Source: Patescibacteria group bacterium (GTDB lineage: Bacteria; Patescibacteriota; Patescibacteriia; UBA2591; UBA4787). Taken from it: a stretch of DNA of 64,000 nucleotides. The notes beneath the pieces were generated by a model, which ran no database searches, was not told where the DNA came from, and saw nothing but the letters and a program-made list of their open reading frames with translations. The stretch is taken from the NCBI GenBank assembly GCA_028715115.1, contig JAQUSN010000001.1, positions 3,314 through 67,313 on the forward strand, given 5' to 3'. A program made the translations under genes and the position numbers. Below, in pieces: positions 222-45,059 of the stretch. Numbering within the stretch: the stretch's first letter is position 1; each line of letters begins with the position of its first letter.

Positions 222-2642
222 TTAAAAATTTCTTAATTTAGCATTAAATTTATCAAATAATAATTTTACCAAATCATTAATAACCTTATCTATTTCCTGT
301 GAATTTAATGTTCTTTCAAATGATTGAAAAGTTAAATGAAAGGCGACATTAAGCACGTCAGCGCCTAATTTGTCTGACTCAAAAACATCAAATGCTTCTA
401 CTCCAGAAATTAAGGGATGAAAGTCCTTGATTGTTTTTAATAAGTCAGCTAAAACCGTCGACCTAGCCACAATAAAAGACAAATCTCTTAAAATCGGAGG
501 GTAATTGGAAATAGTTTTAAACATTGGCGTGGGCCTTTCGATTACCTTGAGGTTTTCTATATTAATTTCAAATAAACCAGCGCCGGAATTTATCTTTAAT
601 GAGTTTTTTAGAGCATCATCTAATTCTCCTGTGACGCCAATCAATTTTTTATCAACAAAAATGCCGATTATATTTTTAAGATATTGATACTGATGATTCT
701 TGCCAACTTGAAAAGAGATTCGTTCCGTACCAAAACCGGCTTTCGACAAAACCGTTTCGATTATTGATTTAATCGAATAAAATAATTTTTTATTCTTTTC
801 GATGATAATGCCCGAGCAATATTTTTCTTCTTTTACCAGCATTTCCTGATCCGGTTGATAGATTTTACCAACCTCAAAAATCCTAAACTGACCAAAAATT
901 GGAATATTCTTTAGGGCATTCTCCAATAAATAAGGAATTAAACTTATTCTTAAATATTTCAATTGCGGACTTAAGGGGTTGGCTAGGGACAAATGATCCT
1001 CGATCTTCAGCTTTAGCTGATTAATTAATCTATCTCCGTAAAATGAATAATTATAAGTCTCATCAAAACCACTGGCAACTAGGGTTAATTTAATATTTTG
1101 CTCAAGTTTAAAATCGTCATTATAAGAAACCGGCGTAATTTGACCCGTTAGCGGTTGCGGCATCAAATCGTCTAAACCATAAATACGCACAATATCTTCT
1201 ATTAGGTCTTCCGGCTGCTCCACGTCAGGCCTATACAAAGGAACGCTTACTGATATTTTTTTCTGGCTTATTTTTTTCACCCCAAAACCCAATGACTTTA
1301 AAATGCTTATTATTTTAGTTAAATTAATCGGAGCGCCAACTAAATCATGGACTCTTTTTACGTCTAAGGCGATGATTTTTTTGTTTTTTATTAAATTACT
1401 AATCTTAACACTCCGTAAATCATAAATCTGGCTGACTATCTTCCCGCCGGCTAATTCTTCTATTAATTCAACGGCTCTGGCGAGTCCTTGCTCGGAAAAA
1501 GTTACAGGTAAACCTTTTTCAAAACGCAAAACCGCCTCGGTTCGCAAGCCGGTTCGCCAAGAAGTACGACGAATAGCGGCTGGTTCAAAAAGCGCCGATT
1601 CGATTATGACAGTCTTGGTCTTGCTATCAATAGCTGAGTACTGGCCGCCGATAATGCCGGCCAAGGCTATTGGACCGCGGTTATCAGCAATAACCAAGTC
1701 GCCTTCCTGGCATTCGTAGGTTTTGGCATCAAGCGCTAAAATACGTTCGCTTTTTTTAGCCAAACGAACAAAAATATTTTTATTTTTTTCTGACGATACC
1801 TTGTCTAGCTTATCAAAATCAAAAGCATGAAGCGGCTGACCTCTTTCTAGTAAAACATAATTAGTAATGTCTACGACATTATTGATCGGTTTAATGCCCA
1901 AATTTCTCAATCTATTTTGAAGCCAAAGCGGCGAAGGGCCAATCTTAATAGAATCCATAATCACCGCCATATAGCGTGGACAGAGTTTATCGTTGCTAAT
2001 TTTAATGTTAACTTTTAGTAAACCGCTTTTTGTTTTTGGTAGTTTAAGCGGTATTTCTTTTATTTGCTGTCCTTTGATGGCTGCGATTTCTTTGGCAAAA
2101 CCTTCAACCGAGAATAAGTCAGGCCGATGAGTTAATGATTTATTTTCCACGTCTAAAATAGTATCGTCAAGCTCTAAAAGTTTAGTAATTGGTTCGCCGA
2201 CCCTTGATTTTTCGGGCAAAACTAAAATGCCGGTATGATCATCGCCCAAACATAATTCATCTTCGGCGCAAAGCATACCGATCGATTTTACACCCCTAAT
2301 AACAGCCTCTTTTATCTCCGCACCATTAGGCAATCGCGCACCGGGCAAGGCTAACGGAACTATCTGACCGGACTTGATATTAGGCGCGCCGCAAACAATT
2401 TCTAAGCGCTGATCTTGCCTGGTTTTTTTGTCGGGGAAAATAATGGTCGCGATTTTTAATTTATCTGCGTTAGGGTGCGGCTTAACTTCAACAATTTTGA
2501 CGGCAATAATCCGATCTAAATTTTTATTCAAAGATACCGTGCCCTCAACCTGCGCTACGCGCGTAGTCAAAAGTTTAGCCAAATTTTCTGGCGATTCGTT
2601 GAATTTTACTAACTTCTTGAGCCACTGATAAGATAATTTCAT
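222..2642 (-). CDS. pheT: phenylalanine--tRNA ligase beta subunit
   Basis: 806-aa product beginning MKLSYQWLKKLV (internal Met of the 826-aa ORF). PheT-like throughout, with B3/4 and FDX-ACB-like regions. Confidence 0.9.
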   Translation of the reverse strand: MKLSYQWLKKLVKFNESPENLAKLLTTRVAQVEGTVSLNKNLDRIIAVKIVEVKPHPNADKLKIATIIFPDKKTRQDQRLEIVCGAPNIKSGQIVPLALPGARLPNGAEIKEAVIRGVKSIGMLCAEDELCLGDDHTGILVLPEKSRVGEPITKLLELDDTILDVENKSLTHRPDLFSVEGFAKEIAAIKGQQIKEIPLKLPKTKSGLLKVNIKISNDKLCPRYMAVIMDSIKIGPSPLWLQNRLRNLGIKPINNVVDITNYVLLERGQPLHAFDFDKLDKVSSEKNKNIFVRLAKKSERILALDAKTYECQEGDLVIADNRGPIALAGIIGGQYSAIDSKTKTVIIESALFEPAAIRRTSWRTGLRTEAVLRFEKGLPVTFSEQGLARAVELIEELAGGKIVSQIYDLRSVKISNLIKNKKIIALDVKRVHDLVGAPINLTKIISILKSLGFGVKKISQKKISVSVPLYRPDVEQPEDLIEDIVRIYGLDDLMPQPLTGQITPVSYNDDFKLEQNIKLTLVASGFDETYNYSFYGDRLINQLKLKIEDHLSLANPLSPQLKYLRISLIPYLLENALKNIPIFGQFRIFEVGKIYQPDQEMLVKEEKYCSGIIIEKNKKLFYSIKSIIETVLSKAGFGTERISFQVGKNHQYQYLKNIIGIFVDKKLIGVTGELDDALKNSLKINSGAGLFEINIENLKVIERPTPMFKTISNYPPILRDLSFIVARSTVLADLLKTIKDFHPLISGVEAFDVFESDKLGADVLNVAFHLTFQSFERTLNSQEIDKVINDLVKLLFDKFNAKLRNF

Positions 2643-2689
2643 GCCAAAATTATTAAAAAATTTAGAGTGGAGCGAATAAATTTTTTGCC

Positions 2690-2850
2690 TGCCTGCCGGC
2701 AACTAAAATTTTGCCTGCCCGCCATAAGCCAGTCGAAATATTTTTGCCGTTTATTATTAGCAAGGTATGTCTAAATTTTATTTGCTATAACATCTGACAG
2801 GCGATGGCAGGCGGGTGCATCCCGTGAGTCCGACTATAGTCGGACTTTTA
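2690..2850 (-). promoter_or_regulatory. pheT leader containing a GC-rich inverted-repeat pair bracketing a 77-nt AT-rich segment, plus the 18-bp palindrome GTCCGACTATAGTCGGAC
   Basis: gcctgcccgccataagcc at 2713-2730 and ggcgatggcaggcggg at 2800-2815 can pair as a long-range stem with a 2-nt bulge. Palindrome at 2828-2845. Confidence 0.3.
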
Positions 2851-2921
2851 CGGGATAACCAAAAATTTATTACTAAAATTTTAGATTCGCCATCTGGCGA
2901 AGACAAAGAGAGATAACCCAA

Positions 2922-5348
2922 TCAACAATTATTATTATTATTGTGACTAGAATTAATATTGTTAACTGGTTTTTCTTTTTCGATTAACCTAACCCTCGCT
3001 TTAGCCACGTCTGACTTAGAAGGATCGTTAATTGAAGTGACCTGGATTGGGAATTCGTAAAATCTATTTTCTATAGCCTCTTCATTTTTGACGGAAATTT
3101 CTAATCTAACTTCTTTGGTTAAACCGCTGGCCAAGTTGCCGCTTTCCCAACCGGTTCCCAAAATTTGTGAAGTAATTTCATTTCCATCTTCTAGAATATT
3201 GAAAAATCTAATATTCCAATTTTTATCCGGATAAGCCTGAACTAAGAATTTATCCACGCCTCGCCCGTCGTTTTGAACTTTCAGGTGGAAAACCGCAGTT
3301 TGTTCAGCAGCAATTTCTTGTTCTTTGCTTTGACCTAGGCCATCTAAATTATAAATTGTATCTCCCAAGTATCGATCATCTGTTTCGTCGCCATTTTTAA
3401 TCTGCGCATCCGGTTGATAGGCTAGAATCTCTTGCTTGTAGAAAGCATCTTTCAGCTTCCAAATTAAAGCCACCAAGATGATAAAACCTATTAAGCCTAA
3501 AACCCAATATAAAACAATCAGCCACGCCGGCGTCTTTAATCCTAATAAAATATCTATTTTATTACCATCTTTACTTAAAGTAAAAATTGGAGACGCGTAT
3601 GGATTGAAATTCTCTTGATTAACTTTCAACCGATATGATCCGGCAGGTAGCATGAATTCATCATATACCCCGTTCTCGTCGGTTATGGTTGAAGCCATAA
3701 ATTGGCAACAGCCCTCGCCACATCGATATAAGTTAACCGTCACATTAGCCATAGGCTCATGATTTTTTTTCTTATAAACATGTCCGTATGGACTGACGAA
3801 AAATTGATTTTCCTGAAAAACCTTGCCATTGCCGATGGTTTGCAAATTATAACCACCAGGCTGAATTATCAAATCTTTATTGATTTGGAAAGTCAGCATG
3901 CCGTCTTTATTGGCCTGATAATTAAAAGGACTTTTATTGTCGGTGGCATTAATTAAATTAAAATTAATAGTTTGCTCTGGTAAAATAGTTCCAATAATGC
4001 TTTTCACCGGACCAGCAATAACAAAGTGGTCAGATTTTAATCCCGGCAAAATAAGTTTTGTATTTTCAACTATTGCTCCATCCCACAGCCCATCACCGTC
4101 AGTATCTTTTTCTTTAGGATTAGTCCCTAAAGTACACTCTTCCTTATTAATCACAAAGTCACCATCTAAGTCTAATTGAGCGTCACTTGGATCCTTTGGA
4201 TTAAGTCCATATTTAACCTCGCAAAGATCAGACATACCATCTTTGTCTAAGTCTGTATCAATATTTACTCTAACCTTAGCTGCATCTATCTTATTAACCG
4301 GATCATTGAGAGAATGGGTGGCAATACCAAATTCAGCGAAATCACCGGTCTGGACTGATTCGGGCACGCTAATTTCCATCTTAAATTCTAAGTTTTTATT
4401 GGGCTGTAAGCCGAATCGATAACCATTTAACATTTGCAGACTAATGTTGTCCCATTTATCACTATTTTTAACAAAATAACTAACCTGCCAATCCTTGGTT
4501 TCACTGCCCGCTTTAAGCACAAACGTATCAGCTTGGCTGCCGACATTAGTCACTCCCAGGTTAACGACCGCCGGATTAAAGGCGGCACTAGAAACTATGA
4601 TTTTAGATTGGATAACCACTGCGTCTGGTTTTTCATAAACTCCCAATCCGATATAATTTTGCTCGCCTGCTGTCTTAATTTCTAAATCAGGCTGTTGAGC
4701 AGTTGTCGGCGTAGTTGAACCGCCTCCACCGCCTTGGTTACCACCGCCAGGCTGACCCGGCTGACCAGGAGTAACACCACCGCCTTGGTTACCACCGCCG
4801 GCATTAGCACTATTGAAGCGTATGGTAATGACACCCCTAACTAAATCTTGATTACCGCTGGTAGCTGAACGAGCTCGAACGAAAAAGACGCTTTCCTGGC
4901 CGTAAAAAACATTTTCCGTCGGCGTCACATACATAAAAAATTCTTCCTGGCGATTATGCGGCAAAGAAGCCGTGCTCCAACCGCTTCCGGTGATGTTGCC
5001 GGTAATATCTCGGCCTGTAACGTCCTTATAAAGTATAGTCCAATAGCTATCAGTTGATGAACCAGTAATCACAAATTTATCTACTGGGTCACCGTCATTT
5101 TCTACTCTCAGACGATAACCAACCTGTTTATGCGCATCAATAATCTGATAAATAGTTTGATTAAAAGCAGTGTTGTTATAAATCCCACCGCCAGCATAAT
5201 TAGCCGTAGTGTCATAGCCGATCATTAAATCAGGCTGATAGTCCGGCGCCTGAGCTTTAACCACCGAAGAATCAAATGTTGGCAATAAAACAAAACTTAC
5301 TAAAATCAAACCGACTAAAAACATTTTTCTGATCGATGTTTTATTCAT
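2922..5348 (-). CDS. secreted/surface protein with signal peptide, Gly-rich low-complexity region, thrombospondin-type-3-like Ca-binding repeats, a CarbopepD_reg-like Cys-containing domain, a C-terminal TM helix and a poly-Asn tail
   Basis: 808-aa ORF. N-terminal hydrophobic signal. Repeated DxDxDG motifs (DTDLDKDGMSD, DLDGDFV, DTDGDGLWDG). TM segment AWLIVLYWVLGLIGFIILVALIW. Confidence 0.7.
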   Translation of the reverse strand: MNKTSIRKMFLVGLILVSFVLLPTFDSSVVKAQAPDYQPDLMIGYDTTANYAGGGIYNNTAFNQTIYQIIDAHKQVGYRLRVENDGDPVDKFVITGSSTDSYWTILYKDVTGRDITGNITGSGWSTASLPHNRQEEFFMYVTPTENVFYGQESVFFVRARSATSGNQDLVRGVITIRFNSANAGGGNQGGGVTPGQPGQPGGGNQGGGGGSTTPTTAQQPDLEIKTAGEQNYIGLGVYEKPDAVVIQSKIIVSSAAFNPAVVNLGVTNVGSQADTFVLKAGSETKDWQVSYFVKNSDKWDNISLQMLNGYRFGLQPNKNLEFKMEISVPESVQTGDFAEFGIATHSLNDPVNKIDAAKVRVNIDTDLDKDGMSDLCEVKYGLNPKDPSDAQLDLDGDFVINKEECTLGTNPKEKDTDGDGLWDGAIVENTKLILPGLKSDHFVIAGPVKSIIGTILPEQTINFNLINATDNKSPFNYQANKDGMLTFQINKDLIIQPGGYNLQTIGNGKVFQENQFFVSPYGHVYKKKNHEPMANVTVNLYRCGEGCCQFMASTITDENGVYDEFMLPAGSYRLKVNQENFNPYASPIFTLSKDGNKIDILLGLKTPAWLIVLYWVLGLIGFIILVALIWKLKDAFYKQEILAYQPDAQIKNGDETDDRYLGDTIYNLDGLGQSKEQEIAAEQTAVFHLKVQNDGRGVDKFLVQAYPDKNWNIRFFNILEDGNEITSQILGTGWESGNLASGLTKEVRLEISVKNEEAIENRFYEFPIQVTSINDPSKSDVAKARVRLIEKEKPVNNINSSHNNNNNC

Positions 5349-5375: not shown

Positions 5376-6431
5376 TTAAAATTGTCTTAAAAACCTTAAA
5401 TCACCGCCATTAAACCATCTAATGTCATCAACTTTATGACGCATCATCACCAACCGATCTAAACCGATGCCAAAAGCAAAACCAGTATATTGAGGCTGGA
5501 CCTGCCTGCCGGCAGGCAGGTAGCCAGCAGCACGCAAAACATTGGGATGAATCATGCCACAACCGAGCATTTCGACCCAACCGCTTTGACCGCAAACAGG
5601 ACAACCCTGGCCACCACATCTAAGACAAGAAAAATCTAATTCAAAACTTGGTTCAGTAAAAGGAAAATAGCTTGGTCTAAGCCTAACTTCGACGTCGCGA
5701 CCAAATAAATAATGCAAAAAAGTCTTTAAAGTATGAAGTAGGTTAGCTACGGAAACGTTTTTATCAACCACAAATCCTTCAATTTGGTATAAACTATGTT
5801 CGTGTCTAGCATCCGTCGCTTCGTGACGATAGCATTTGCCGATAACGCAAACCTTGAGTGGCGGTTTTTGTTTCTCCATTACCCTAACCTGCATCGCCGA
5901 AGTATGCGCCCTTAAAAGCAATCTGCCATTTTTTGATGGTTGATGATTGAGCCAAAATGTATCCCACATGTCGCGCGCCGGATGATTAGCGGGAATATTT
6001 AAAACATCAAAATGATAATGTTCGTTCTCGACCTCTGGCCCCTCTAGCACCTGCCAACCCATGGAGTGAAAAATGTCAGCTACTCGCATCTTCATTTGCG
6101 TGTGTGGGTGTAAATGACCGAGCTTAATCGTCTGATCAGTTAAATTTAAATTCAAGTCCGGCAAATCGTCGACTTGTCGAGAATCAGCCACTGATAAATC
6201 ATTTTTTCTATTATTTATAGTTGACTCTAAAATATTTTTTACCTCATTGATAAGTCGTCCCATTTCTGCCTTCTCTTGTGGAGTCATATCTTTTATCTTT
6301 ATGCTAAAATTCCGCAATTGCCCGTTGCGTCCTAAATATTTGCGCCACAATTCTTCTAATGAATTAAAGCCGCCCGCCGTTCTAATTTCTTGCAGCGCTG
6401 AATTTTTTAAATTTTCCAAAGACTCTTTCAT
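5376..6431 (-). CDS. pheS: phenylalanine--tRNA ligase alpha subunit
   Basis: 351 aa with class II aaRS motifs (FTEPSFELDF, GCGMIHPNVL, GFAFGIGLDR). Confidence 0.9.
   Translation of the reverse strand: MKESLENLKNSALQEIRTAGGFNSLEELWRKYLGRNGQLRNFSIKIKDMTPQEKAEMGRLINEVKNILESTINNRKNDLSVADSRQVDDLPDLNLNLTDQTIKLGHLHPHTQMKMRVADIFHSMGWQVLEGPEVENEHYHFDVLNIPANHPARDMWDTFWLNHQPSKNGRLLLRAHTSAMQVRVMEKQKPPLKVCVIGKCYRHEATDARHEHSLYQIEGFVVDKNVSVANLLHTLKTFLHYLFGRDVEVRLRPSYFPFTEPSFELDFSCLRCGGQGCPVCGQSGWVEMLGCGMIHPNVLRAAGYLPAGRQVQPQYTGFAFGIGLDRLVMMRHKVDDIRWFNGGDLRFLRQF
5502..5521. repeat. perfect 20-nt GC-rich palindrome CCTGCCTGCCGGCAGGCAGG inserted in frame in pheS
   Basis: Encodes the extra residues (LPAGRQ) relative to the conserved PheS C-terminal alignment. 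Same GCCTGCC/GGCAGGC core as the other GC mini-elements. Confidence 0.6.
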
Positions 6432-6929: not shown

Positions 6930-9900
6930 CTATATTTTACGGTACTCACAAATATCCTTAAAATCGCAATACTTGCAAAGCATACTCGGCTTGGCCGGAA
7001 AATTACTGTGATGAATTTCGTCAAAAATTTTGGCGATTTTTTGTTTCATATCATCCAGCTCGCCCTCCGTCCCTAAAAAAGACAACTGGGAATTATCTTC
7101 TAAAAAAATATAAGTTAATTTTTTAATTTCTTTTTTGAACAAACCGGCCGCGGCTAATTGATAAATCAGTAATTGCTCTTTATCTTCGGCTGATAATTTT
7201 CCGTCTTTAACGGTACCGGTTTTATAATCAATAATTTCTAAACCGTCTCCCAAATCGTCTACCCGGTCAATTTTTCCCTTAATCGTGCAGTCGCCGACCT
7301 TAAAATTAAAATCTAACTCCACATATTGAACGTCTGGTTTCGAGGTGCTGAATTCCTGATAAAATTTCTTTAAACTCTTCTCTCCCTTTTGCCGATATTC
7401 TTCCCGCAACTTATCGTCCGGATACCATTCATCAATCCAGCACTCATCATAAATCTTCATTATCAAATCCTGGTTTGGCACGACAGGCTCTTCCTTTTTC
7501 GGCGTTTCAAATAATTTGCTTTGTACGACTTTCTTCTGCAATAAAACTTGCGACAAAAACTTTTGGAGCGTTAGATGCATAGTCTGGCCAAAACTAAATA
7601 CATAACGGCCGCGAACTGGAATACGCAAAATAAAACCGAATTTATATTGCAACGGGCAATTTTCAAAAGCGCGCAGTTGGCTAAAACTAATTTTGGCCGG
7701 CAAATTAAATTGAGTGATTACTTTTTTTTCTTCCTCTTTAAAAATCGGCAATTTTAAGACTTTTGTTTTTTTACCTATAGCCTCTTCTTTTATTAAACCT
7801 AATTCATATAAAAATCTTGAGGCCTTTTTCTTGCGGGCGCCACCGTAATCATCGGCTAAAGTTAAAAATAAATTATCTTTGGCGCGAGTTAGTGCCACGT
7901 AAAATAATCGCCGTTCTTCTTGTAAATGAATATCGCCTTCGGGAATTATCTCGCGAGTCAAGGCATCGGGCAATTCAACGCCTTCTTTGCGCTCTGAAGT
8001 AGGAAAACGGCGATCAACTAAATTAACTAAAAAAACCGTTTTAAATTCCAGGCCTTTAGCGCCATGAACGGTCATAATTTTTACCGTCTCCGGACCAACT
8101 TCAATAATATCAGTCGGCAACGAGCCCTCATCGCCAGCTTCAATAATAATATCGATCGTCTCAATAAAATTCTTTAATGATTTATCGGTATTGGTTAATT
8201 CGAATTCTTCTATTTTTTTGAAAAATTGGCTAACCCAGGCAACATTCTCTATATTTTCTAGGCCGCCTTTTTCAGCCTGCCGGGAAATACTTTTCAAATA
8301 ACCAGAATCTTCCAAGAAAGAATAAACTATTTTACCCGCGCCCTGCTGTCTGGCCATCTGGCTATGTTTTTCAATCCAGCCCAAAAGCTGATCAATGGCC
8401 GACGCGCCATCTTTGGAAATTTCTTGCAAAGAATGAATTGTTTTTAGTGTTTGATAAAGAGATTTTCCTTTGCGGCGCGCCGCATTTATTATGTTGACTA
8501 AGTCTTCGTTAGTTATTTTTCCGCCCGAGGCGTGAACCCTAGGCTCATCAGCCTTGGGCTGAGATCGGCCTGCCTGTCCGCTAGGCAGGCCCTGGGCCGA
8601 AAAAATCGGCGACGTTAAAATCCGATAAAGCGCTGTGCTTTCGTGATAATTAACTAATAATTTTAAATAGGCCAAAATGTCTAAAATAATCGGCTTAGAA
8701 AATAATCCGCTGTGGGCTAAAAATTGATAAGGCACATTGCGCCAACGCAAAGCCTGGCAAAATATTTCCGCCTGATTATTAGCCCGCACTAAAATGGCAA
8801 AATCGTTCCAACTGGCTTCCGGGTTTTTTTCTTTCATCTCGATAATTTTATCGACTACGGCTTTGGCCTCTTCGTCTTGAGTGGCACTTTGCAGTAAATC
8901 AATGTTTGCGCCATTACCGCGCGTAGCTTCAAGTTTTTTGCAAATTACGTTTTTGGGCAAATCGCCCACTCCGTCAAGCTGAGAAACCTGCGCCTCCAGA
9001 CGATTGGGATTATTAAGCTGAATAAAACGATAGGCCATATCTAATATCTCTTGTCTGGAACGATAATTTTTCACCAAAACAACTTCTTTGGTTTTGGGGT
9101 AATCTCTTTTAAACTGAATAACATTGTTATATGAAGCGCCACGGAATTTATAAATACTCTGGTCATCATCGGCCACTACGGTTAAATTATTCTTTGGAGC
9201 GCCTAATAATTTTAATAATTCATATTGCGACCAATTAGTATCTTGAAATTCATCAACCAAAACATATTTAAACTGTTCCCTGTATTTAGCTAAAACGTTT
9301 GGCCGATCTTTGAAAAGCTTGATCGTATAATTAATCAAATCACCAAAATCAAGCGCCGAATTTTCTAATAATAGTTGCTGGTAAGTTTGATAAGCCTCGG
9401 CGATTTCTTTGAGCCGGCCGGCTTCCTGATCTAAAAGTTTATGGCTGGTTACCGTATCCTGATCTAGGGCAATTTTCTCCGCGTAATTTAAATATTCTTC
9501 GGGTGTAATAAATTCGTCTTTAGCCCGAGAAAAATGCTTGATCAAATCTTGAATGAATTTAAACGGCGTACCGAGCGGCCGATAATAGTTTAGATTAAAA
9601 CGGCTAAAATTCTGGCGGACCAAAAGAGCCTGTTGGGCAGAATTAATGATTTTAAAATTAAGCGGGAGTCCAATTTCAATGGCGTGCTGGCGTAAAATTC
9701 TTTCGCAAAAAGAATGAAAAGTCGAAGCCCAAAGGTCAACATAACCATAAGGTAATAATTTATCAATGCGCTCTTCCATTTCTTCGGCCGCCTTATCAGT
9801 AAAAGTCAAAGCTAAAATTTCTTCGGGTTTGGCCTTTCCGGACAAAATCAGCCAGGCGATGCGCCGGGTAATAACCGTGGTTTTGCCCGTACCCGCTCCG

Positions 9901-34580: not shown

Positions 34581-35264
34581 TTAAATAACGTATCGACCGC
34601 CCTTGATTTGATCGCCGATAACCATGCCGTGATCTAAGGTAATTACTCGACGTTTTAATAAATTAACAATTTCTCGATTATGACTCACCAGTAAAATAGT
34701 CGTACCGAATTTATTAATTTTTAAAAGCAAATCAATTATATCTCTGGTATTAATGGAGTCGAGATTGCCAGTCGGCTCATCGGCAATTAAAATTTTTGGC
34801 TTATTGGCAATGGCTCGGGCAATAGCTACGCGCTGCGCCTCGCCAGCCGATAATTGATGAGGCCAACGATTGGCCTTACTTTCTACGCCAACAATGCGTA
34901 AAATTTGCGGAACCATAGCTTTTATTTTTTTTTCCGGAGTACCGACTACTTCAAGGGCAAAAGCAACGTTTTCGTAAACGTTTTTTTTGGGCAATAATTT
35001 AAAATCCTGAAAGACCACACCCACCTGACGGCGTAAATATGGTATTTCTTGACTATTAATATCAGTGATATCCCAGCCGCCAATGATGATTTTGCCCTGG
35101 GTGGCCTTTTCTTCGGCAATAAGCAATTTTATAACCGTGGTTTTGCCGGCACCTGATTGGCCAACCAGGGAAACAAACTCGCCCGCCTCAACACTAAAAG
35201 AAACATTACGCAAAGCATGCGTATTTGGCGGATAGAATTTACTAATGTTGATTAATTTAATCAT
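34581..35264 (-). CDS. ABC transporter ATP-binding protein (FtsE/LolD-like)
   Basis: Walker A GQSGAGKTT, signature LSAGEAQRVAIARA, Walker B ILIADEPT. Confidence 0.8.
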   Translation of the reverse strand: MIKLINISKFYPPNTHALRNVSFSVEAGEFVSLVGQSGAGKTTVIKLLIAEEKATQGKIIIGGWDITDINSQEIPYLRRQVGVVFQDFKLLPKKNVYENVAFALEVVGTPEKKIKAMVPQILRIVGVESKANRWPHQLSAGEAQRVAIARAIANKPKILIADEPTGNLDSINTRDIIDLLLKINKFGTTILLVSHNREIVNLLKRRVITLDHGMVIGDQIKGGRYVI

Positions 35265-35276
35265 TTAATTTTTTTC

Positions 35277-35332
35277 TGGAGCCGAGGGTGAGGATCGAAC
35301 TCACGACCTATGGTTTACGATACCGTTGCCCC
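35277..35332 (-). pseudogene. 3' remnant of a tRNA-Thr-like gene (D-stem 3' side through CCA, anticodon CGU)
   Basis: rc = GGGGCAACGGTATCGTAAACCATAGGTCGTGAGTTCGATCCTCACCCTCGGCTCCA. Its acceptor 3' strand CCTCGGC matches the isolated 5' fragment GCCGAGGTAGCTC at 35625-35637. Confidence 0.5.
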
Positions 35333-35347
35333 GCCTGCCATCGCCCT

Positions 35348-35420
35348 AGCCCGCGGTCGGAATCGAACCGACAACCTACGGTTTACGATACCGTTGCTCT
35401 ACCAGTTGAGCTACACGGGC
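35348..35420 (-). tRNA. tRNA-Thr (anticodon CGU)
   Basis: rc = GCCCGTGTAGCTCAACTGGTAGAGCAACGGTATCGTAAACCGTAGGTTGTCGGTTCGATTCCGACCGCGGGCT. 7-bp acceptor, loop ATCGTAA. Flanked by GGCGATGGCAGGCGGGG (35329-35346) and CCTGCCCGCCATAG (35426-35439). Confidence 0.85.
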
Positions 35421-35444
35421 TCAGGCTATGGCGGGCAGGTCTAC

Positions 35445-35528
35445 CCTACTTCGAGCTTATTAATTAAGCTCGAACGGGCCGTCCAGTTTTTTTCAAAAAC
35501 TGGAATAGGCCAATTGAGCTATCTGGGC
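35445..35528. repeat. conserved double-hairpin repeat (TTCGAGCTTA-N-TAAGCTCGAA, CGGGCCGT, CCAGTTTTT-N3-AAAAACTGG, AATAGG) fused to a 19-nt tRNA 5' fragment (GCCCAGATAGCTCAATTGG on the minus strand)
   Basis: About 80% identical to 41280-41358. The hairpin core is also at 40671-40690. Confidence 0.7.
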
Positions 35529-35624
35529 AAAAGTGGCGGGGCAAGGCTGCCCCGACGTTTTAGTCGGTCCGATGACTCCGACGAGTATCGGACTCCGTCG
35601 GAGGACTCCGACTGTAACGTCGGA

Positions 35625-35637
35625 GAGCTACCTCGGC
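35625..35637 (-). pseudogene. isolated tRNA 5' fragment GCCGAGGTAGCTC (identical to nt 1-13 of tRNA-Thr(UGU) at 40605-40617, plus 2 nt of its upstream flank)
   Basis: rc of gagctacctcggc. Followed on the minus strand by hairpin-rich sequence homologous to 40690-40760. Confidence 0.5.
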
Positions 35638-35820
35638 ATTAACACTCAGTCAGCCTATTAATATAATACACTAGGCTGAAAATTTTTCAATTGGAGCGGG
35701 TAACGGCCTGCCTGCCCTGACTGCCGTCAGGCGGGCGGTAGGCAGGGAATTGAATCTTTACTTGGGAAGTCCTAAAAGTTTTTGCAATCCGCCAAATTGC
35801 GGAGAAGTAGTGAATTTTTG

Positions 35821-39335: not shown

Positions 39336-39409
39336 TGGCGGGGGTGGCAGGAATCGGACCCGCATTATCGGTTTTGGAGACCGGTGTTCTACCACTGAAC
39401 TACACCCCC
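39336..39409 (-). tRNA. tRNA-Trp (anticodon CCA), CCA encoded. Atypical T-loop TCCGATT and one C-A mismatch in the anticodon stem.
   Basis: rc = GGGGGTGTAGTTCAGTGGTAGAACACCGGTCTCCAAAACCGATAATGCGGGTCCGATTCCTGCCACCCCCGCCA. Confidence 0.7.
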
Positions 39410-40639: not shown

Positions 40640-40760
40640 GACGGGCAGAGCCACTACCGCCCAGTTTTAAGAAAAACTGGAATAGGCTGTTGTCCCGACG
40701 TTTCAGTAGAAAAGTCGGGTCTCCGACCGAAAGCGTCGGAGAGCTAGGGCGGCATGCTCG
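40640..40760. repeat. copy B of the tRNA-associated repeat: hairpin CCAGTTTTAAGAAAAACTGG, hairpin-rich CCCGACG/GTCGGAG segment, and a tRNA-like 5' fragment GCCGCCCTAGCTC
   Basis: Homologous to 35483-35637 (shared CCCGACGTTT, GTCGGAGAGCTA, GGCAT). Degenerate CCTGCCCG-CCGCC motif directly upstream of the tRNA. Confidence 0.55.
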
Positions 40761-40931: not shown

Positions 40932-41004
40932 AGCCCGAGGTCGGATTTGAACCGACGACCTACTCCTTACCATGGAGTTGCTCTACCAGCTGAGCTACCC
41001 GGGC
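40932..41004 (-). tRNA. tRNA-Thr (anticodon GGU)
   Basis: rc = GCCCGGGTAGCTCAGCTGGTAGAGCAACTCCATGGTAAGGAGTAGGTCGTCGGTTCAAATCCGACCTCGGGCT. Confidence 0.85.
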
Positions 41005-41256
41005 ATGTTGTAAATATTGTTTTAAAATTTTCTGCTTTAATTTGGCGCTATATAAACTTTTAAAGTATTTTTCTTGTTCCATCGCTTCAACTCGTGTATC
41101 AAATGATTCTTGATGAATAACAATAAACGGCCTTCTATTTTTTGTCGATATTACCTGCCCACTATTATGTTTTTTAACTCTCGCCACTAGGTCATCAGTT
41201 TGCCCAACATATAATTTTTTATCTTTCAGGCTATATAAGATATAAACAAAATACAT
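40960..41256 (-). CDS. GIY-YIG domain endonuclease (small, URI-type). The 3' end of the ORF runs into the tRNA-Thr(GGU) gene.
   Basis: FVYILYSLKDKKLYVGQTDDLVARVKKHN...E matches GIY / YIG / R / H-N / E spacing. The last roughly 15 codons are tRNA sequence. Confidence 0.65.
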   Translation of the reverse strand: MYFVYILYSLKDKKLYVGQTDDLVARVKKHNSGQVISTKNRRPFIVIHQESFDTRVEAMEQEKYFKSLYSAKLKQKILKQYLQHARVAQLVEQLHGKE

Positions 41257-41279
41257 ATTTTGCTACTTGCTTTACCCTA

Positions 41280-41358
41280 ATTCGAGCTTATTAGATAAGC
41301 TCGAACGGGCCGTCCAGTTTTAAGAAAAACTGGAATAGGCCAGCTGAGCTACCCGGGC
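41280..41358. repeat. copy C of the tRNA-associated repeat plus an exact 19-nt duplicate of the tRNA-Thr(GGU) 5' end (GCCCGGGTAGCTCAGCTGG, with 2 nt of upstream flank)
   Basis: ttcgagcttattagataagctcgaacgggccgtccagttttaagaaaaactggaataggccagctgagctacccgggc. Confidence 0.7.
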
Positions 41359-44799: not shown

Positions 44800-44915
44800 C
44801 AAGGGAGCGACCTGCCCGCCTATTGCCTATCCAAGAGTTAATCTAAACAAGAATTAAAGAAACAATATTCTTTCTAGGTTTTAACTCCATGGGACGGCGT
44901 TGGCAGGCGGGGCGA
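44800..44915 (-). promoter_or_regulatory. glyQS leader carrying the same GC-rich inverted-repeat pair as the pheT leader (CCTGCCCGCC-TAT ... GGCG-TT-GGCAGGCGGGG) around a 75-nt AT-rich segment. Upstream -10 TATAAT abuts the palindrome GGATGTTATACATCC.
   Basis: Arms at 44808-44820 and 44896-44912. Palindromes at 44973-44987 and CCGCCAGCCGGCGG at 44945-44958. Confidence 0.3.
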
Positions 44916-45059
44916 TAAAGAAAAATTAATTTTTCTTTTCCGATCCGCCAGCCGGCGGAGTTGGCAACAATAGGATGTTATACATCCTATTATAATATAA
45001 ATAATAAAAAAGAAAAGCCAAAAACCTGGCTTAAAAGCGGTAAAGTATTGAGTTGGTTT

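Follow-up and report, generated by a model that had tools for sequence, protein, structure and literature searches.

In the genome of a Patescibacteria group bacterium (assembly GCA_028715115.1), the aminoacyl-tRNA synthetase (aaRS) gene pheT is preceded by an unusually long spacer, and this raises the question whether the spacer is a regulatory RNA leader or an insertion of mobile DNA. The analysis was carried out on a 64,000-nt stretch of contig JAQUSN010000001.1 (positions 3,314 to 67,313), referred to here as the window. The window has 39.5% GC and represents 64 kb of the source genome, and the statements on the genome are limited to that stretch. An earlier note on this DNA had considered both a non-T-box cis-regulatory RNA and an insertion of the element family which is also present at tRNA-Thr(CGU). 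The spacer is very probably a lineage-specific mosaic of mobile GC-rich hairpin modules, one of which belongs to a family termed here clamp elements. The regulatory reading of the leader is not supported, and the locus is best described as a mosaic insertion of miniature mobile palindromic elements.

The spacer is lacking in relatives

On the minus strand of the window, pheS (5376-6431) is followed by an 808-aa open reading frame (ORF) for a surface protein with a CarboxypepD_reg domain (2922-5348) and by pheT (222-2642), all assigned by Pfam. The spacer between the stop codon of the 808-aa ORF and the ATG of pheT measures 279 nt (2643-2921, minus strand), close to the 280 nt estimated earlier. 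Contigs encoding the closest PheT relatives were retrieved and the junction was read. In the contig of P0001, with 78% identity in PheT, the gap between stop and ATG is 2 nt as judged from gene coordinates only. The junction is TAA-TC-ATG in L006/L007 (63% identity) and L008/L009 (62% identity), and 15 nt separate stop and ATG in L010/L011 (59% identity). The spacer of 279 nt in the window is hence represented by 2 or 15 nt in relatives.

The gene order pheS-surface protein-pheT is kept in these relatives, as read in L008 and L010, so the separation of pheS from pheT is old and independent of the element. The earlier note was correct in that the 808-aa gene splits the two synthetase genes, but the element it had named as a partner in the split is not involved, the order being ancestral. 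It had also stated that orthologous leaders without the element in an unchanged context would favour a passive insertion over regulation, and relatives with the same pheS-surface protein-pheT context and without the spacer are what was found. As these junctions indicate, the 279-nt spacer was acquired in this lineage and is not an ancestral leader. The same leader is present in a second independent assembly (Logan contig L002, whose spacer is identical to that of L001), and it is therefore not an assembly artefact. A search for related loci in genome contigs with PheT returned distant relatives only. At glyQS, the second aaRS gene of the window with a clamp element upstream, relatives chosen by GlyRS have no clamp but just a promoter spacer of 74 nt.

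Organization of the spacer

The following description is in the direction of transcription. Near the 5' end of the spacer lies a GC hairpin, TTCGCC-AGAT-GGCGAA (2886-2901, minus strand), which belongs to a module type CGCC-N3-5-GGCG. It is overlapped by a promoter-like site, TTGTCT-17-TAAAAT (2878-2906, minus strand), which is a weak consensus match only; promoter-like sites number 5 in this region against 2.3 expected. It is followed by a 36-nt hairpin, TCCCGT-AAAA-GTCCGAC-TATA-GTCGGAC-TC-ACGGGA (2820-2855, minus strand), with a perfect 18-bp palindrome GTCCGACTATAGTCGGAC at its tip (2828-2845). The palindrome is of a second module type, TCCGAC-loop-GTCGGA, and GTCCGACTATAGTCGGAC itself is unique in the window even at 3 mismatches, with 0 expected. 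The outer stem of the 36-nt hairpin resembles the conserved linker CATCCCGTTAGAAG of one clamp subfamily.

The clamp element occupies the next 102 nt (2714-2815). It is composed of a left arm CCCGCCTGCCATCGCC (2800-2815, minus strand), an AT-rich cargo of 76 nt (2724-2799, minus strand; 29% GC) and a right arm GCTTATGGCGGGCAGG (2714-2729, minus strand) whose core GGCGGGCAGG, with C as next base, is at 2714-2723. The cargo is not tRNA-like and does not fold significantly by itself (z = -0.86). Further downstream is a truncated form, here TTGCCGGCAGGCAGGCAA, of a 20-nt palindrome CCTGCCTRCCGGYAGGCAGG (2685-2702, minus strand), which gives a weak terminator-like match; the full palindrome is found equally far past the right arm in L076 and L081. 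The spacer ends with an AT-rich segment, CGCTCC...TAATAATTTTGGC (2643-2674, minus strand), abutting the ATG of pheT. The last 43 nt before this ATG show 84% identity to L010 5082-5124, upstream of another ATG, and the segment could serve as a proximal promoter or as a start module.

The palindrome, both GC arms and the AT-rich segment of the earlier note are thus all present (2828-2845, 2800-2815 and 2714-2723), though the AT-rich segment between the arms is 76 nt long and not 77 nt. The arms pair as it had described, and a second register is possible in which the 16-nt ends form imperfect inverted repeats. It had overlooked the 36-nt hairpin around the palindrome, the hairpin at 2886-2901 and the truncated CCTGCCTRCCGGYAGGCAGG at 2685-2702.

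Folding of the leader, a check which had been proposed, gave -88.5 kcal/mol with a z-score of -5.6 against shuffled sequences. The complementary strand folds nearly as well (z = -5.0), which indicates that the structure resides in the DNA palindromes and is not particular to one RNA strand. The lack of a T-box stated earlier was borne out: the window has no T-box match at the gathering threshold, and in 2550-3000 neither the T-box nor any other Rfam family matched even at E <= 10. Searches of the leaders of pheT and glyQS and of 12 loci, at gathering and relaxed thresholds, gave no Rfam family at the gathering threshold. A separate observation concerns one AT-rich cargo that is not a window copy: L129 212-269 (minus strand) scored 36.5 bits for Lacto-rpoB, whose gathering threshold is 40, and this match is probably a coincidence of an AT-rich hairpin.

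Clamp elements in the window and in metagenomes

The 16-nt left arm has three sites in the window at 0-1 mismatch and five at <=3 mismatches, against 0.24 expected. The arm at 2800-2815 (minus strand) is identical at 35330-35345 (plus strand) and differs by 1 mismatch at 44896-44911 (minus strand), and each of the three left arms has a right arm 75-84 nt downstream. The second element lies 45 nt upstream of glyQS (44811-44911, minus strand) and encloses an AT-rich cargo of 75 nt which is unrelated to the cargo of the pheT copy. Its identity to L013 and L081, neither of which adjoins glyQS, is 77-80%, and a GC hairpin of the CGCC-N3-5-GGCG type is situated beside it (44946-44957). The third element (35330-35439, plus strand) has as cargo a complete tRNA-Thr(CGU), encoded at 35347-35421 on the minus strand, and it splits another tRNA-Thr(CGU). 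The 3' two-thirds of this outer tRNA abut the left arm (35277-35329, minus strand). Its 5' pieces are at about 35440-35450, where a remnant of the D-arm abuts the right arm, and at 35625-35637, so that the 5' end is about 200 nt off, behind further insertions.

JGI metagenomes were scanned with the exact pattern GCCTGCCANCGCC-N60-90-GGCGGGCAGG. At least 120 loci were found, with 125 matches listed, and all counts given for the family are among these listed matches. In about 105 of them the CCC-prefixed arm is complete; the remainder are chance matches in GC-rich sequence. The kinship with the element at tRNA-Thr(CGU), suggested in the earlier note, therefore holds, and the family numbers three copies in the window besides at least 100 from metagenomes. 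The clamp ends are imperfect terminal inverted repeats of 16 nt, CCCGCCTGCCAWCGCC and GGCWWTGGCGGGCAGG, complementary at 13 of the 16 positions, and the paired ends have the conserved mismatches C3xA and T7.G. The cargo enclosed by the ends is in general about 75-85 nt. Proteins encoded beside the copies have the source labels Candidatus Kaiserbacteria, Buchananbacteria, Paceibacterota and 'Patescibacteria group'. IMG/VR gave just 2 GC-rich, chance-like matches and the phage and plasmid collections none, on which ground an origin from phages or plasmids was rejected. No description of the element was found in the literature on tRNA introns of the Candidate Phyla Radiation (CPR), on nested or disrupted tRNA genes and on the arm sequences. 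The clamp family is widespread in Patescibacteria and apparently undescribed.

Copies of the family are found within each other. One AT-rich subfamily is nested in the apex of another in L076, L081, L106 and L120, and arrays of arms are found in L021 and L045. In the tRNA-Arg(CCU) locus of L021 (minus strand, about 5740-6430), a pair of left arms is accompanied by nine or more copies of the right arm, with spacings of 70 nt and 37 nt. Such a pattern indicates that pieces of the clamp cassette were serially nested in one another or amplified in tandem. L010, which has no insertion at pheT, contains two cargo-less clamps of 30 nt, CCCGCCTT(C/T)GCCAAGGCTATGGCGGGCAGG, at about 3617-3646 and 5806-5835. 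They may represent the element in an empty or collapsed state.

Clamp elements which carry tRNA genes

A complete tRNA is enclosed in 44 listed matches (about 40% of the copies), always in the same orientation to the arms. The cargo tRNAs are mostly Arg-CCU (12), Thr-CGU (8), Arg-UCU (5) and Arg-CCG (3), and Val, Cys, Pro, Ala, Thr-UGU and Gly are represented as well. When exactly CCCGCCTGCC...GGCGGGCAGG was deleted in silico, the outer tRNA was rebuilt in 25 listed loci without a duplicated target base. The insertion points are in the D-loop (about positions 19-24) or the anticodon loop (34-37) and rarely elsewhere. Comparison of a nested copy with an empty copy of its subfamily showed insertion likewise without target duplication. 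At the level of sequence, insertion is precise, free of duplication and directed into loop-coding sites, namely the D- and anticodon loops of tRNAs and the apex of other copies.

Inner and outer tRNA have the same anticodon in 19 of 23 pairs among the matches listed. The two are only 60-90% identical and differ by compensatory changes in the stems; they therefore belong to different functional lineages and do not stem from a local duplication. Four orthologous loci, L047, L091, L117 and L126, allowed the fate of the parts to be compared. The inner tRNA-Arg(UCU) is invariant but for a single position, and changes in the arms are confined to single bases in L117 and L126, while the outer exons bear different deletions and the linkers change too. 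The decay of the outer tRNA around an invariant inner one argues for a DNA insertion which replaces its target and not for an intron. The clamp as a tRNA intron of the group I or bulge-helix-bulge (BHB) kind was rejected, as the outer exons bear independent deletions and the outer tRNA-Thr in the window is fragmented.

Clamp elements with AT-rich cargo

Non-tRNA cargos of 61-90 nt are found in 61 listed metagenome copies and in two copies of the window. These copies are intergenic and lie beside unrelated housekeeping genes in either orientation, the neighbours including lysS, groEL, nusA, eno, a miaB-like gene, metG and rpoB. A specific association with aaRS genes was rejected on account of this diversity. 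The pheT copy is an AT-rich-cargo variant of the clamp family. The element with its downstream flank (leader positions 106-242) aligns with L076 1711-1854 at 69% identity over 153 nt, and the alignment spans the clamp, the cargo, a further 12-13 nt and the CCTGCCTRCCGGYAGGCAGG palindrome; the L076 locus adjoins the miaB-like gene.

On average, the AT-rich cargos do not fold significantly (mean z = -0.5). The possibility that the cargo is the long hairpin of a miniature inverted-repeat transposable element (MITE) was rejected on these z-scores, the clamp alone being structural. A portable promoter was rejected likewise, since a sigma-70 scan of 45 AT-rich cargos in the two orientations gave a hit in 8 and 5 of the clamp elements, against 6.7 and 5.7 in shuffled sequences.

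One subfamily of AT-rich copies has a particular arrangement at the start codon. Its left arm is continued by a conserved 11-nt extension (14 nt with the GGG of the arm, GGGCTTCTAACGGG) and then directly by an ATG. This subfamily, seen in L015, L016, L022, L046, L055, L062, L068, L071, L088, L089, L100, L107 and L114, is oriented opposite to the pheT and glyQS copies. The downstream genes are unrelated and include lysS, an Nramp transporter, dehydrogenases and, as judged by eye, a small ribbon-helix-helix-like protein and a holB-like protein. The arm with its extension behaves like a portable 5' untranslated region.

Evaluation of alternative explanations

A dedicated non-T-box cis-regulatory RNA of pheT, in which the clamp and the downstream hairpin would act as anti-terminator and terminator, is very improbable. 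In its favour, the leader is of great length and stability (z = -5.6), it has the promoter-like site at its 5' end and the weak terminator-like hairpin at 2685-2702, and a second aaRS gene, glyQS, is also preceded by a clamp element. But the spacer is missing from all four orthologous contexts, copies of the element are beside unrelated genes in either orientation, and the antisense strand of the leader folds as well as the sense strand. The cargos at pheT and glyQS are unrelated, the leader has no T-box or other Rfam match, and the terminator-like palindrome has no T-run in its full-length copies. The proposal of a non-T-box leader in the earlier note is not supported, in view of the orthologous loci without the whole spacer, the unrelated neighbour genes and the folding of both strands. 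We consider it just as improbable that the pheT copy began as a tRNA cassette which has drifted to AT, so that its 76-nt cargo would be a decayed tRNA pseudogene or the gene of a small RNA. AT-rich cargos (70-88 nt) are close in length to tRNA cargos (81-90 nt), and the right-arm linker YWGGCWWT is common to both kinds of copies. Yet neither the pheT copy nor the glyQS copy gives a tRNA-like signal at E <= 10, nor do 12 AT-rich loci at E <= 1, and ARAGORN finds no tRNA in AT-rich copies. Moreover, the AT-rich subfamilies are 70-80% conserved between genomes, which points to the spread of AT-rich master copies and not to independent decay.

More room, though still little, is left for the explanation that the inserted clamp is now an insulating or processing helix in RNA, cut for example by RNase III, which separates the cistrons of the surface protein and pheT. 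Arms are invariant among copies with unrelated cargos, and in L047, L091, L117 and L126 they are nearly as conserved as the inner tRNA while linkers and outer exons change. An inner tRNA within homologous outer exons would plausibly need the clamp to fold, and the helix has a conserved U.G pair in its left-to-right register. Against this stand the search pattern, which imposed the arm conservation in the metagenome set, the cargos, which are unstructured on average, and the orientation of the pheT and glyQS copies, which is opposite to that of the tRNA-carrying copies relative to the transcript. This explanation is unlikely.

In the reading as a mosaic of mobile modules, hairpin modules were inserted into what was ancestrally a 2-nt junction of the surface-protein gene and pheT. 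Movement probably proceeds via a folded single-stranded hairpin intermediate, and an enzyme acting in trans, not encoded alongside, would recognise the conserved asymmetric clamp with its C3xA and T7.G mismatches. The insertion at pheT would be a passenger which ended the tight coupling to the upstream gene. Expression of pheT would then occur by read-through over the very stable hairpins or from the AT-rich module before the ATG, and the insertion would sense neither Phe nor tRNA-Phe.

Several points weigh against this reading. All-against-all clustering of 2164 ORFs from 96 loci gave no recurrent family of transposases, recombinases or nucleases, and genes for GIY-YIG nucleases were seen in just 5 of about 120 listed loci, kilobases distant; with no linked enzyme, mobility is inferred from the insertion patterns alone. 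Terminal inverted repeats without target duplication match no standard mechanism of an insertion sequence (IS) or MITE. No long-range arm pairs were seen among the loci, and no parent IS was found. The pheT clamp itself has no clean empty site, since it is the entire 279 nt by which the window departs from the relatives. Identical arms around unrelated cargos could mean that the clamp itself is selected in place, as an insulator or processing helix, and the pheT copy may have acquired a function. The scan demanded exact arms, and arm conservation in its results is partly ascertainment. The coverage of the source genome is 64 kb.

A wider proposal is that clamp elements are an undescribed class of mobile cassettes, which insert as hairpins into tRNA loops, carry a replacement tRNA of the same anticodon, give rise to AT-rich intergenic derivatives and are moved by a dedicated enzyme. 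We hold this tentatively, with slightly more doubt than belief. If true, they would be self-compensating 'tRNA-gene replacement' elements which serially overwrite resident tRNA genes.

Companion hairpin modules

The TCCGAC-loop-GTCGGA module is found three times in the window (2829, 35607 and 40722) against 0 expected, the copies at 35607 and 40722 being within decayed tRNA-Thr loci. Hairpins of the CGCC-N3-5-GGCG type are also seen inside split tRNA exons in L021, L040, L042 and L092, and the 20-nt palindrome CCTGCCTRCCGGYAGGCAGG is widespread. Two protein-coding genes of the window have similar insertions. Inside pheS, the 20-nt palindrome, here the perfect CCTGCCTGCCGGCAGGCAGG (5501-5520), makes a net in-frame insertion of 18 nt, where the protein reads LPAGRQVQPQ and two orthologues read PKGK. 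In the gene of a UvrD-like helicase, an in-frame insertion of about 75 nt (8515-8590, minus strand) is missing from the L010 orthologue. It is composed of three GC hairpins, CCTGCCTAGCGGACAGGCAGG, TCAGCCCAAGGCTGA and CGCCTCGGGCG, that is, the 20-nt palindrome and two others. Judging from these occurrences, the other pieces of the pheT leader are mobile hairpin modules too.

Comparison with known elements

Clamp elements were compared with known families of small repeats. Correia elements of Neisseria (CREE/NEMIS) and enterobacterial ERIC are alike in being multi-copy, non-coding sequences of about 100-150 bp with terminal inverted repeats, situated at intergenic co-transcribed sites, forming a long hairpin and being present or absent at orthologous sites; they can also alter the expression of neighbouring genes. 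Correia elements duplicate a TA target. Clamp elements differ in the lack of target duplication and in that only the 16-nt ends are conserved, with a freely exchangeable interior. They also enter loop-coding positions of tRNAs and other copies, many of them with an apparently functional tRNA gene. Of the features of MITEs, they are short, non-coding, multi-copy and bounded by terminal inverted repeats, but target-site duplication is not seen, as the 25 listed loci were restored without duplicated bases.

The REP/BIME/REPIN sequences, which are mobilised by RAYT proteins (IS200/IS605-like Y1 transposases), are likewise GC-rich extragenic palindromes in an AT-richer genome, without target duplication, and a single-stranded hairpin intermediate is presumed for them too. 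REPINs are inverted pairs about 70 nt apart which form a hairpin. The clamp arms are C-rich or G-rich half-sites, in contrast to the palindromes of REP, and have no GTAG-type head. Neither the window nor the about 120 listed loci showed a RAYT/TnpA (Y1) gene, so the elements are not classed with REP or REPIN; the tRNA cargo and the targeting of tRNA loops are features of the clamp only. Integron attC sites are also imperfect inverted repeats, whose conserved ends surround a variable centre of comparable length; they share as well unpaired conserved bases which give polarity, and precise, duplication-free insertion of exchangeable cargo. Unlike attC, the clamp has no R/L-box GTTRRRY core, its cargo is inside the hairpin and not beside it, and its targets are tRNA loops and not attI. 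There is no attI platform, the ORFs checked in the window and those of the loci included no integrase, and an assignment to integron attC is not made.

T-box and other aaRS leaders, such as the pheST attenuator, are alike in being a long structured region upstream of an aaRS gene. The pheT leader differs in that it has no specifier, T-box or antiterminator architecture, is not conserved and is not specific to aaRS genes; there is no covariance match to the T-box family RF00230, and the pheT spacer of relatives is 2-15 nt. Elements which disrupt tRNA genes, such as bacterial group I introns in anticodon loops, archaeal BHB introns which transpose among tRNAs and genomic islands which restore the 3' end of the tRNA they split, are likewise inserted precisely in the D- or anticodon loop without duplication and invade the same tRNA family repeatedly, and islands also compensate for the damage to the target. 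The clamp differs from tRNA introns and islands in its size of about 105 nt, in having no ribozyme core and no BHB geometry, and in a helix which is flush with the junction. Its outer tRNA decays, and it brings a whole replacement tRNA instead of just a 3' piece. Rickettsia palindromic elements and yeast mitochondrial GC clusters are generally known as GC-rich palindromes which spread in a small AT-rich genome and make in-frame insertions in genes; this likeness concerns the companion mini-hairpins and not the clamp, and there is no sequence relationship.

Clamp elements thus resemble Correia/ERIC MITEs, REPINs and attC hairpins but fail the defining features of each, and the carrying and replacing of tRNA genes sets them apart from all three. 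For the pheT locus, the result removes a false lead, as there is no new aaRS riboswitch. It means that the streamlined genomes of Patescibacteria host active, tiny GC-rich hairpin elements which reshape operon junctions, essential genes and tRNA genes. It bears on the turnover of the tRNA repertoire by horizontal transfer in CPR bacteria and accounts for 'extra' or fragmented tRNA calls in the annotation of metagenome-assembled genomes. The 16-nt signature can be used to seek the enzyme which moves clamp elements.

Other features of tRNA loci in the window

The tRNA-Thr(CGU) locus (35230-35660, minus strand) is a graveyard of tRNA pieces. In addition to the clamp element, its outer tRNA is broken by a TCCGAC/GTCGGAG hairpin block and holds a 19-nt fragment of the 5' end of another tRNA, GCCCAGATAGCTCAATTGG, and a two-hairpin module, CCTATTCCAGTTTTT..AAAACTGG..TTCGAGCTTA..TAAGCTCGAA. 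Upstream of tRNA-Thr(UGU), the region 40650-40760 (minus strand) contains a degenerate right-arm-like sequence CTGCCCGTCCGCCTTAGTCTGA, a 13-nt tRNA 5' fragment GCCGCCCTAGCTC and another TCCGAC...GTCGGAG hairpin. These pieces look like relics of an older cassette.

In the region 40960-41352 (minus strand), an ORF for a 98-aa GIY-YIG nuclease (PF01541, E = 1e-16) extends into tRNA-Thr(GGU). Upstream, at 41270-41352, the 5' end of this tRNA is repeated over 19 nt and followed by the same two-hairpin module as in the tRNA-Thr(CGU) locus. The arrangement has the appearance of a free-standing homing endonuclease which was inserted into the D-loop of a tRNA. The tRNA-Trp at 39336-39409 and the outer tRNAs of L047, L050, L069 and L091 have the T-loop TCCGATT, with C at the position of the nearly universal U55.

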